From Acinetobacter wanghuae (lineage in GTDB: Bacteria; Pseudomonadota; Gammaproteobacteria; Pseudomonadales; Moraxellaceae): DNA of 32,000 bases. Positions 20,727-32,000 of the stretch are shown one piece after another. The stretch lies in assembly GCF_009557235.1 (NCBI RefSeq), contig NZ_CP045650.1, positions 2,130,001 to 2,162,000 of the forward strand. The letters run 5' to 3'. Within the stretch, counting starts at the first letter, position 1; the number at the start of each line of letters is the position of its first letter. Under the pieces are notes generated by a model that had not been told where the DNA came from, ran no database searches, and was given only the letters and a program-made list of their open reading frames with translations. Both the position numbers and the translations under genes were made by a program.

Positions 20727-22271
20727 CTAAATAGACTCAAAGAGCTCTACCCATTTTTTTAGAATACTAGTACTAGAAAAGTTTTGACTCAGTAATTTGG
20801 CTTGTTCGCGAATATGACTCATATTCTGTTGATCATTCAAGTATTGAATAATTTTTTGAGCGTATTGCTCTACATCACCATCTGCAATCAAATAGCCATT
20901 TTGGTTATGTTGAATCATTTCACTTGGTCCATAACGAATATCGAATGAAGTCACAGGACAGCCATTAGCAAGCGCTTCCATGATCACCAAACAAAAGGAT
21001 TCACTCTGACTGGTTAATAACAACATTGAAGCTTCTTGGAGCACTTGATTTACATCCGAAACAAAGGGCTTTAAGAAAATATGATTTTCAAGTTTTTTGT
21101 CTTTAATCATTTTCTTTAAGTTCGAATACTCTAGTCCGAAACCAAATAAATCTAAGGTCGCTTGTGGATGATGCGTAACTACACGTTCAAAAATTGAAAT
21201 GAGTAAATCTAAGCGTTTTACTTTGTCATACCGTGCCAAAGAAACGAATTTATAGGGATCAAATGTAAGATAATAATCATCAGGTCTATGCGCCAATGCA
21301 TGTGGAATCACTTTATAGTTATTATGTGCACCATAAAGTTCTTCAATATCCTTTTTCTGTCGGTGAGTCAAAATGATCAAACCAGATAATTTATCGATAT
21401 GCCTAAAATATGGTGTGTAATTTTTATTCGGTGAACTTTTTATATCATTTGGATTATTATAGTGCGCTGCATGAATTGTACCAAACATGAAGAAATTCGA
21501 AGGAATATTATCCTTCAGTAAAAGATTAAAAACATTTATACGGTCGATCAAGAAAAGATATTTCTTCCGCGGGTCAATACATAATTTTCGCTGAATTGTA
21601 TATTGAGCCAATTCGATCAAACTCTGACAACTTTGGATGACCATCCCGTGTTCATCGAATAAATGTAGATTCTGAATCACACGTTTATCCTTGTTATAGC
21701 CGTAATGAACTTGGATAACGAGTTTGCCATTCACATCAAAAAAACTCTCAGCAATAACTTTTTTTTCATTCAAAATTTGATTTGAACATAGCTTTCCATA
21801 GTCATCGTAACGACTACGACTTACGACTTGTCCATTTTCAAAAAAGTTGATATGAATGAGCTTAGAGGATTTAAATACTTCATAGCGTTTGGTTCTACCC
21901 GATGTATCTTTATATATACGATTATTGATTGAATCAAATTCAACACCATTTTCAACACATGCGGCGATTGAACAAAAATAATCGGATGACTTCTTTTGGT
22001 AATATGAAAAAAGATTAATCAATTCGATATTTTTTGTATTTTTTAATAAACAATCGCTATATAATTTTTCAAAATTTGCACGTGTATTCAAATCGTGTTC
22101 AATGGTTAAAATTTTTATTTTGTAACCATAATTTGCGAGTAACTCTGCTCGACGCAACATTGAAACTACAATACCTGTCTTATTTTCTGATATTTTAGGG
22201 TAAAGCATAAATATTTCTTTATTGCTCATATTCATTATGTATCCATATAGATTTTTATCTAAAAACAACAC
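20727..22271 (-). CDS. GT4 glycosyltransferase of the GtfA/SdgA/SdgB type (O-glycosylation of Ser-rich or Ser-Asp repeat proteins)
   Basis: 514-aa ORF. The track start at 22271 is a GTG that overlaps the upstream stop by 1 nt; ATG starts at 22235 or 22229 are at least as likely.
- The C-terminal GT-B half has the E-x7-E block SESFCLVIMEALANGCPV followed by FDIRYGPSEMIQHNQNGYLI. I remember streptococcal GtfA as ...FDVRYGN..FI.DGKNGYL.
- The mid-region GTIHAAHYNN...NKNYTPYF...LIILTHRQKKDIE resembles GtfA VVVHAEHF...WNNFYDYQ...FIVATEAQK.
- The N-terminal ELINLFSYY resembles GtfA IIWLYNFF.
- The length of about 500 aa suggests an inserted domain between the Rossmann halves.
- There is no signal peptide. 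Confidence 0.75.
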   Translation of the reverse strand: MLFLDKNLYGYIMNMSNKEIFMLYPKISENKTGIVVSMLRRAELLANYGYKIKILTIEHDLNTRANFEKLYSDCLLKNTKNIELINLFSYYQKKSSDYFCSIAACVENGVEFDSINNRIYKDTSGRTKRYEVFKSSKLIHINFFENGQVVSRSRYDDYGKLCSNQILNEKKVIAESFFDVNGKLVIQVHYGYNKDKRVIQNLHLFDEHGMVIQSCQSLIELAQYTIQRKLCIDPRKKYLFLIDRINVFNLLLKDNIPSNFFMFGTIHAAHYNNPNDIKSSPNKNYTPYFRHIDKLSGLIILTHRQKKDIEELYGAHNNYKVIPHALAHRPDDYYLTFDPYKFVSLARYDKVKRLDLLISIFERVVTHHPQATLDLFGFGLEYSNLKKMIKDKKLENHIFLKPFVSDVNQVLQEASMLLLTSQSESFCLVIMEALANGCPVTSFDIRYGPSEMIQHNQNGYLIADGDVEQYAQKIIQYLNDQQNMSHIREQAKLLSQNFSSTSILKKWVELFESI

Positions 22272-23332
22272 TATATCTTGGCAATTTTTTTACGTAAGTT
22301 TTGCGGTAAAAAATTATTCTTATACGGTGGTTGAGCCTTAATTGCTAACCATTCATAATAATCGACCTGCGCACATGCAACGGAATATGCCATAAAGCCA
22401 ACACCAGGCCCAACATTAACCTCGTAAATATAGATATCTCCATCTTGTGTAATCCCAAGGTCCAGCCCAATTGAATCCAATCTCCACGCAAATTGTTTTT
22501 GGAAATTTTGATTAAAATCATCAAATAACTGTCTGATACCTAGATTAATTTTATCCACGCTACTTGGGTAGTATTGCTCTAAAAATAGCTGTTCTCGAGT
22601 GGTGATTAATGCCCCGAGCATACCATTTGTAATATCAATCTCTTTGTTTAGATTCACGTAAGGGAAAAATTTAATGAGCTGCCATTTGCCCTCTTTCCCA
22701 CGTGTAATATGCATTCTAAAAACAGTCGTCTGTCCTAAATGAGTTTCACTTTTTAGAAATGGACTAACTGTATAACCTCTTTTGAGATTTTTTTTTGTAA
22801 ATTCTTCTAATTCACTTAAATTATATTCATGCTGTTCTTGCATTTGTTTTACTATATATACATCAGCATTCTTTTTAATTGTAACAATTCCCTTACCCTG
22901 ATTACTTGCATCGGGTTTACAAATAATCTTGCTATATTTATTTAGGCTATTTTTAATCACTGAAAAATCATTAAGCTCTAAAACCTCGATTAAATACTTC
23001 CTCAACGGTTCAACCTTATTCATAATTTTATAAACCGTTTCCTTCGTACCAATCCGATTATTTGCAAAAGGAATAAGCTCTGCTAACTTTAAGTAGCTTT
23101 CCATATCCTCTTCTTTCACAGCCAAACGATTCTGCACAACATCTGGAAAATCAAAAATCTCTTCAACAACTTTATTATTCCTTAAAGTTTTGCCCTTAAT
23201 TCTCTTATTCTTAAAATCAATATTTTTTGCAATGAATACATAAGCTTCATGTTTTTTTTGCTGAGCAACTGAAATAAAAATTTTCTCTATATCGGTTATC
23301 ACCATATTCGGTTTTAATACACCAAAAATCAT
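22271..23332 (-). CDS. ATP-grasp enzyme, YheC/YheD-like family
   Basis: 353-aa ORF. Motifs are FDFPDVVQNRL (like the YheC/D ...PDV.Y.R), IICKPDASNQGKGI (the P-loop-like ATP-grasp strand), FRMHITRGKEGKWQL, and GLDLGITQDGDIYIYEVNVGPG (the ATP-grasp C-terminal Mg/ATP motif). It has a 4-bp overlap with the upstream gene. No signal peptide. Confidence 0.7.
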   Translation of the reverse strand: MIFGVLKPNMVITDIEKIFISVAQQKKHEAYVFIAKNIDFKNKRIKGKTLRNNKVVEEIFDFPDVVQNRLAVKEEDMESYLKLAELIPFANNRIGTKETVYKIMNKVEPLRKYLIEVLELNDFSVIKNSLNKYSKIICKPDASNQGKGIVTIKKNADVYIVKQMQEQHEYNLSELEEFTKKNLKRGYTVSPFLKSETHLGQTTVFRMHITRGKEGKWQLIKFFPYVNLNKEIDITNGMLGALITTREQLFLEQYYPSSVDKINLGIRQLFDDFNQNFQKQFAWRLDSIGLDLGITQDGDIYIYEVNVGPGVGFMAYSVACAQVDYYEWLAIKAQPPYKNNFLPQNLRKKIAKI

Positions 23333-31900: not shown

Positions 31901-32000
31901 TGTCTGAGTCGGAATCGCTGTCGCTATCAGAATCGGAATCACTGTCGCTGTCTGAGTCAGAGTCGCTGTCGCTGTCAGAATCGCTGTCAGAATCAGAGTC
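25974..32000 (-). CDS. Giant Ser-Asp-repeat, T1SS-type (Bap/RTX-like) surface adhesin; 5' end lies beyond the window (2008 codons visible)
   Basis: The 1005-aa track ORF begins at a GTG (cac, 28989-28991), but the same frame stays open upstream. The preceding codons are atc/aga/gtc/aga/gtc/gct, which read GAT TCT GAC TCT GAC AGC on the minus strand. The phase, with plus-strand codon starts divisible by 3, still reads Asp/Ser at 31980-32000. The C-terminal part has VCBS-like blocks ([14 protein letters not shown]...[11 protein letters not shown]) and a T1SS C-terminal target domain. Confidence 0.85.
25977..26336 (-). other. Type I secretion C-terminal target domain (about the last 120 aa of the adhesin)
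   Basis: [23 protein letters not shown]...[22 protein letters not shown]...[25 protein letters not shown]...[27 protein letters not shown]. The pattern (D.I.DF...GD.LDL..LL ... vd.dG.g ... i.L ... L) matches the T1SS C-terminal target domain of the VCA0849 subclass as I remember it. Confidence 0.7.
27114..28976 (-). repeat. Two tandem, diverged modules of about 300-320 aa within the adhesin, each ending in a VCBS-like block
   Basis: Module 1 (aa 6-326) and module 2 (aa 327-626) align block by block:
- AVDDLDSV / AVDDLYTA
- [24 protein letters not shown] / [24 protein letters not shown]
- [18 protein letters not shown] / [18 protein letters not shown]
- [10 protein letters not shown] / [10 protein letters not shown]
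- [14 protein letters not shown]...[25 protein letters not shown] / [14 protein letters not shown]...[25 protein letters not shown]. Confidence 0.8.
28992..32000 (-). repeat. Uninterrupted Ser-Asp dipeptide repeat tract, at least 1003 codons, truncated by the window edge
   Basis: Only the codons GAC/GAT (Asp) and TCT/TCA/TCC/AGC/AGT (Ser) occur. Strict alternation is mirrored in the shadow ORF 28958-31942, which alternates [T/I] with [L/Q/P/A/V] without exception. Higher-order identical DNA blocks lie inside the tract (see findings). Confidence 0.9.

Follow-up and report, generated by a model that had tools for sequence, protein, structure and literature searches.

A candidate stalk-modification cassette next to a type I-secreted Ser-Asp-repeat adhesin of Acinetobacter wanghuae

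In Staphylococcus aureus, the glycosyltransferases SdgA and SdgB glycosylate the Ser-Asp (SD) repeats of MSCRAMMs (ClfA and SdrC/D/E), shielding the adhesin stalks from proteases. Cytoplasmic modification is also a feature of several other exported proteins. HlyC acylates internal Lys residues of RTX toxins in the cytoplasm, using acyl-acyl carrier protein, before their export by the type I secretion system (T1SS). HMW1C of Haemophilus is a GT41 enzyme that N-glycosylates Asn, and TibC of Escherichia coli is a heptosyltransferase, their substrates being two-partner-secretion and autotransporter proteins. Here we describe a locus in a 32,000-nucleotide window of the Acinetobacter wanghuae genome (C1:2130001-2162000, where C1 is the single contig, NZ_CP045650.1, of a 2.77-Mb, 99.9% complete genome; positions refer to the window unless prefixed with C1). 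It consists of a giant gene for an SD-repeat adhesin and an adjoining cassette of four genes. Judging from sequence comparisons, we consider it slightly more probable than even (roughly 0.55) that the cassette serves to modify, in the cytoplasm, the SD/Ala-Asp (AD) stalk of a T1SS-exported biofilm-associated protein (BAP), with O-glycosylation as the core step.

The cassette is encoded on the minus strand and comprises, in order of transcription, genes for a 550-aa six-hairpin (α/α)6 protein (24141..25793), a 266-aa protein of the S11 DD-peptidase fold (23329..24129), a 353-aa YheC/D-family ATP-grasp protein (22271..23332) and a 514-aa GT4 glycosyltransferase (20727..22271). The genes are spaced by an 11-nt gap, a 4-bp overlap and a 1-nt overlap, so that the tightly packed operon of the initial annotation is exact in its spacing, and Pfam matches uphold the S11 and ATP-grasp assignments made there. 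Signal peptides and transmembrane segments are absent from all four proteins (top 19-residue Kyte-Doolittle mean ≤1.55), in agreement with the earlier statement that none has a signal peptide, and all four enzymes are cytoplasmic.

The closest point of contact with SdgA/SdgB is the glycosyltransferase (PF00534, E 1.2e-34), which falls into the SdgB/SdgA/GtfA/TarM clade. As in the staphylococcal system, it is a cytoplasmic GT4 with the region of a DUF1975-type insertion, encoded beside a long SD-repeat adhesin gene and, by analogy, it may act on the stalk. Among NCBIfam models, glyco_SdgA (201 bits) and glyco_SdgB (184 bits) score highest, both with full-length coverage, ahead of GtfA (TIGR02918, 119 bits). 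The closest solved structures are those of SdgB (7ec1/7vfk/7vfo; E 3e-44 for 7ec1/7vfk), then TarM and GtfA (4pqg, 5e9t). Residues 136-510 align gaplessly with residues 121-493 of SdgB 7ec1/7vfk, DUF1975 insertion region included; in SdgB, this acceptor-binding domain binds SD peptides (PMC8561734). The ranking of the models and the alignment through the insertion region rule out a generic polysaccharide GT4 and bear out the GtfA/Sdg type proposed initially. Several features set the locus apart from the Sdg system. It belongs to a diderm, and its predicted substrate is a T1SS-exported BAP, whereas the MSCRAMMs are Sec/sortase-anchored proteins of a Gram-positive bacterium. Furthermore, the stalk has an added (AD)308 block, and the six-hairpin, YheC/D ATP-grasp and S11 partners have no Sdg counterparts.

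The adhesin gene occupies 25974..32000 (minus strand) with its 3' part and is 5'-open at the window end. Its frame runs stop-free to an ATG at C1:2166731 (window position 36731), giving a complete open reading frame (ORF) of 10,758 bp and a protein of 3,585 aa. In profile searches, the N-terminal region (residues 1-917, outside the window) contains a BapA_N prefix (PF22783, E 3.8e-28) and nine Big_6 Ig-like domains (E 2e-221). It is followed by (AD)308 at residues 918-1533 and (SD)523 at residues 1534-2579, which together form an acidic Ser/Ala-Asp stalk of 1,662 residues. The in-window part of (SD)523 lies at 28993..32000 (minus strand; ~1,002 residues according to TRF), and (AD)308 precedes it outside the window. 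The (SD)n substrate named in the initial annotation is thus present but was incomplete, since AD repeats also belong to the stalk. Towards the C-terminus, the same strand encodes VCBS/cadherin-like modules, including a VCBS repeat (28104..28259; NCBIfam, E 3.5e-5), the BapA/Bap/LapF adhesin C-terminal domain NF045619 (26364..27866; E 8.5e-90) and, as export signal, the T1SS C-terminal target domain TIGR03661 (T1SS_VCA0849; 25983..26225; E 8e-13). The query for the C-terminal NCBIfam search was residues 990-2008 of the in-window ORF, and NF045619 matched query residues 390-890. The ABSDF2314 family model NF045618 also matches the C-terminus (E 1.6e-54). Signal and domain analysis finds no Sec signal in the adhesin, which carries the T1SS target domain instead. 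The earlier description of a giant (Ser-Asp)n gene with VCBS-like modules and a T1SS signal is therefore accurate, with the gene extending past the window.

An assembly or repeat artefact can be discarded as the source of the SD tract. The repeat codons are mixed (TCN and AGY for serine, GAC and GAT for aspartate), as expected of a genuine repeat gene, and the tract is part of one continuous ORF from C1:2166731 on a single near-complete contig. By its domain layout, the adhesin is a β-type BAP of Acinetobacter, having the BapA N-terminal prefix, the dipeptide stalk of (SD)523 and (AD)308 and an RTX-like T1SS C-terminus. BAPs of this architecture, with SD/SA repeats in the stalk, are known from A. 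calcoaceticus, A. pittii and A. baumannii SDF (De Gregorio et al. 2015, PMC4647330). The adhesin matches the ABSDF2314/ABSDF785 family, to which the SD-repeat BAPs of A. baumannii SDF belong: the BapA motif at its N-terminus is conserved, its stalk is a long tract of SD (or SA/AD) dipeptides and its C-terminus is RTX-like, for T1SS export; the adjoining modification cassette is not covered in the published account of β-type BAPs (PMC4647330). A hydrophobic segment, LPWGAILGGLLGVGVVAAA, is found at adhesin residues 121-139, within the BapA_N prefix region and outside the window (genome ~C1:2166370). By analogy with LapA-type T1SS adhesins, this segment might be a retention or membrane-anchoring element.

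The only clear T1SS of the genome is encoded at C1:1206698-1211323, ~0.93 Mb from the adhesin (L039 in our genome survey), and consists of a TolC-family outer membrane protein, an LssB-family permease/ATPase and an HlyD-family membrane fusion protein. This system probably exports the BAP described here. In the mechanism that we propose, the (AD)308-(SD)523 stalk would link the N-terminal BapA_N/Big_6 region to the C-terminal BapA/LapF domain ending in the T1SS signal, and the four enzymes would act on the unfolded stalk inside the cell, before the whole protein exits via LssB/HlyD/TolC. Modification before export would be feasible, since a T1SS moves its substrates out of the cytoplasm unfolded and in a single step; HlyC provides a precedent for it. 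Glycosylation, its chemistry and its purpose are what we infer. The core and best-supported step would be O-glycosylation of Ser in the SD repeats by the Sdg-like GT4, by analogy with the GlcNAc added by SdgB. Second in support, this glycan is probably a substrate of the 550-aa protein, whose fold would suit its processing by an epimerase, isomerase or transglycosylase-like reaction. Third, the YheC/D ATP-grasp protein and the S11 protein, which has the fold of serine acyl-transferases, probably attach an amino acid or acyl group, either on the glycan or on the side chains of Asp. As in Sdg-modified staphylococcal stalks, the likely purpose would be protease protection and stiffening of the long stalk, perhaps also masking from host or phage.

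Gene neighbourhoods connect the cassette with repeat adhesins well beyond this genome. Our survey included 28 Acinetobacter loci with a homologue of the 550-aa protein. In ~20 of them, which have sufficient flanking DNA, the 550-aa gene is found directly downstream of a large repeat adhesin gene with a matching T1SS C-terminus. In a few loci, such as those of A. pittii and A. guillouiae, the two genes are tail-to-tail, and exceptions to the adjacency include a second 550-aa copy in A. gerneri. The adjacency is kept across divergent Acinetobacter species in which the 550-aa protein is 55-66% identical. Of the cassette proteins, it accompanies the adhesin most consistently, the S11, ATP-grasp and GT genes being variably present. 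SdgA/SdgB are the top-scoring models for each GT4 encountered in these loci, and one locus (L009) holds an SdgA/SdgB-like pair. On a contig of 51% GC (GCA_040392545.1; L036), a (DA)n T1SS adhesin gene is followed by TolC/ABC/HlyD genes and then by a gene for a 1,422-aa fusion of 550-aa-type, YheC/D ATP-grasp and Mur-ligase parts, a run which suggests that the modification genes can merge into one enzyme. In a Gram-positive genome of 36% GC (L049), an LPXTG SD-repeat adhesin adjoins a 550-aa homologue and an Sdg-like GT4, and in a Bacillota genome the gene for a giant LPKTG (SD)293 protein immediately precedes a 550-aa homologue (L054). Repeat-adhesin adjacency is thus conserved across phyla. 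The substrate-plus-modifier module of the initial annotation gains from the ~20 Acinetobacter loci and from the other genera. By contrast, its description as a diderm and T1SS module holds only in part: the substrate here is indeed a T1SS protein, but specificity to diderms and T1SS is ruled out by the homologues beside sortase-anchored SD adhesins.

The 550-aa protein was left without a class in the initial annotation, and Pfam indeed assigns it to no family, the one match being weak (DUF6985, E 0.27). Its AlphaFold2 model (pLDDT 94.9, pTM 0.92; alignment of 40 sequences) is a six-hairpin (α/α)6 toroid, which rules out an unclassifiable unknown. The top Foldseek matches of the model are D-mannose isomerase, cellobiose 2-epimerase, GlcNAc 2-epimerase and GH76 mannanases, and those including 5x32, 4z4l, 3gt5 and GH76 have TMt ~0.62-0.68 and E ~1e-6. 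Among its structural neighbours in the Atlas are a polymer-acting C5-epimerase domain and forms fused to GT4 and Mur ligase. The protein is accordingly predicted to have a sugar-active-like fold of the AGE-epimerase/six-hairpin glycosidase superfamily; NCBI names its homologues 'poly alpha-glucosyltransferase'. Some of its ~1,564 relatives are fused to YheC/D ATP-grasp, Mur-ligase (glutamate ligase), PGA_cap, S11 or GT4 domains. There is one copy of the gene in this genome. The third-closest homologue (73% identity) is assigned to a metagenome-assembled genome (MAG) of 'Coxiella endosymbiont of Dermacentor nuttalli'; it probably comes from an Acinetobacter contig mis-binned into this MAG.

The remaining two enzymes are the least certain contributors. 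The S11 protein (Pfam S11, E 1.3e-18) retains the SxxK (STAK), SxN (SSN) and KTG motifs, and its nearest solved structure is the Streptomyces K15 DD-transpeptidase. The ATP-grasp protein (PF14398, E 1.1e-32) gave no match in a sequence search against solved structures and represents a narrow subfamily, with 42 close homologues confined to Acinetobacter. Related ATP-grasps of the TupA/YheD type have been predicted to be amidoligases, attaching amino acids to surface polymers (PMC12632600, summarising Iyer et al. 2009). From its family, the protein is probably an amidoligase as well, and a role together with the S11 protein in elaborating the decoration would fit this class. It shares with CfmP of Klebsiella and related amidoligases (PMC12632600) the YheC/D-TupA group, to which the PF14398 match assigns it, a surface-structure locus and predicted amino-acid addition; it differs in its location in an adhesin-modification cassette. 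A further and rather unlikely extension is that the 550-aa protein defines an unnamed family which partners SD/AD adhesins across phyla and works beyond O-glycosylation, in glycan processing or non-GT4 sugar transfer, and that it builds, jointly with the ATP-grasp and S11 proteins, a novel glyco-amino-acid decoration of the stalk. Glycan processing might then be, for example, in-place epimerisation, like that of polymer-acting C5-epimerases of the same fold. This extension draws also on the Mur-ligase and PGA_cap fusions of the 550-aa relatives.

Several observations weigh against a stalk-modification module. The identity of the glycosyltransferase to SdgA/SdgB is low and its similarity is at the family level only, with 201 and 184 bits against an equivalog cut-off of 800; its GtfA score is also far below the equivalog cut-off of that model. 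The S11 and ATP-grasp genes are missing from many adhesin loci, which makes their role in a common modification uncertain. Homologues of the 550-aa protein are also found without a repeat adhesin (L047, L051, L037 and L056), the L047 homologue being near PGA_cap and an mra cluster and the L051 homologue near RTX/cadherin proteins that lack SD repeats. The Mur-ligase and PGA_cap fusions indicate poly-amino-acid chemistry, perhaps without a protein substrate. Finally, the cassette is located behind a strong terminator, as already proposed in the initial annotation. This intrinsic terminator (25926..25950, minus strand) is a perfect 20-bp palindrome, AGAGGCCCCT-AGGGGCCTCT, at 25931-25950 followed by TTTTT. 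It closes the adhesin transcript, and the cassette is therefore a transcription unit of its own, apart from the adhesin's; the AT-rich intergenic region at 25794..25925 (minus strand) is its probable promoter.

As an alternative, the cassette could be part of an independent cell-envelope pathway for the synthesis or decoration of a polysaccharide or a poly-amino acid (for instance a polymer similar to poly-γ-glutamate, or an amino-acid-decorated glycan) and lie next to the adhesin only by co-location in a genomic island. Besides the terminator and the low GC content of the cassette itself, this explanation can call upon the fusions of 550-aa homologues to PGA_cap and Mur-ligase (glutamate-ligase) domains, one homologue that adjoins a PGA_cap gene and the decoration of surface polysaccharides by TupA/YheD-like ATP-grasps (PMC12632600). 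However, co-location does not sit well with adhesin adjacency that persists in divergent Acinetobacter and in unrelated Gram-positive genomes, and the GT4s are specifically of the Sdg-like, SD-peptide-acceptor type. Moreover, the lipid-carrier, flippase or polymerase components needed by a polysaccharide pathway are absent, all four proteins being soluble. We regard a separate pathway as unlikely, although it is the strongest competitor. Less probable still is that the main modification is amino-acid ligation on Asp side chains of the SD/AD repeats, akin to isopeptide-forming glutamylation, carried out by the ATP-grasp and S11 proteins and, in relatives, by Mur-ligase domains, with the glycosyltransferase in a minor role. 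The 1,662-residue stalk is acidic, ATP-grasp and Mur-ligase (FolC/CapB-like) enzymes form amide bonds on carboxylates, and fusions of 550-aa relatives with ATP-grasp, Mur-ligase and S11 domains exist; yet the ATP-grasp and S11 genes are often absent from adhesin loci that have Sdg-like GTs, and the nearest solved relative of the GT glycosylates SD repeats. A defence or conflict system, hinted at by a weak match of the GT to PF20706 'GT4 in conflict systems' (E 3.5e-5), is highly improbable, since this match is under the cut-off of the model, the surrounding genes centre on the adhesin and Sdg/GtfA models score best.

If the cassette is a stalk-modification module, it also differs from the other systems that modify adhesins or T1SS substrates before export. 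With the glycosylation of streptococcal serine-rich repeat (SRR) adhesins (GtfA/GtfB, accessory Sec), it would by analogy share the use of several cytoplasmic enzymes on a repeat stalk with dedicated export afterwards. Unlike in the SRR system, where S/T-rich repeats are exported by SecA2/SecY2, the repeats here are SD/AD and the route is T1SS, there is no GtfB-like chaperone or Asp1-3, and the extra enzymes are of other classes. The locus does not belong to the SRR/accessory Sec system: its SD/AD substrate has a T1SS signal, GtfA is only the third-best model for the GT and no GtfB partner was found. The HlyC system shares the precedent of a T1SS substrate modified in the cytoplasm by an adjacently encoded enzyme, but the region proposed to be modified here is the SD/AD stalk rather than internal Lys, and none of the four cassette proteins (GT4, YheC/D, S11, six-hairpin) is an HlyC-family acyltransferase. 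Like HMW1C and TibC, the cassette would provide a Gram-negative adhesin with dedicated cytoplasmic enzymes encoded nearby; the glycosyltransferase families are different and the substrate here is a T1SS SD-repeat protein. Our literature search found work on β-type BAPs (PMC4647330) and SdgB structures (PMC8561734) and turned up no account of a modification cassette beside Gram-negative SD adhesins. Glycosylation of SD-repeat stalks is itself known; new here would be the diderm host, T1SS export and the extra enzyme classes, and the system appears to be undescribed.

The gene content of the window, according to protein family matches, is that of a Gram-negative, Acinetobacter-like genome. Housekeeping genes at 162-8364 (minus strand) and 8933-13738 (plus strand) encode NuoF, NuoE, fused NuoCD, NuoB and NuoA of complex I, a HAMP histidine kinase with an OmpR-type response regulator, and the class I ribonucleotide reductase proteins NrdA (with ATP-cone) and NrdB. 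A TonB-dependent receptor, a membrane pyrroloquinoline quinone (PQQ) glucose dehydrogenase (Gcd-like, 803 aa) and an OprB carbohydrate porin are encoded at 13800-20198 (minus strand), just upstream of the AT-rich island; this group is typical of Acinetobacter glucose oxidation. The GC content of the cassette region (20727-25793) is 31-35%, versus 40-45% in the flanks, a possible sign of horizontal acquisition. The codons of the SD/AD repeats make the repeat DNA GC-rich (46-52%).

If our interpretation is correct, SD-repeat glycosylation would be described for the first time in a Gram-negative bacterium, and for the first time in connection with type I secretion. An unnamed six-hairpin family and a YheC/D ATP-grasp subfamily would gain a function. 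Since T1SS substrates leave unfolded and straight from the cytoplasm, modification of large T1SS adhesins before export, comparable to that of RTX toxins by HlyC, becomes testable. A trait of staphylococcal virulence would also be extended to biofilm adhesins in Acinetobacter, whose members include serious opportunistic pathogens.

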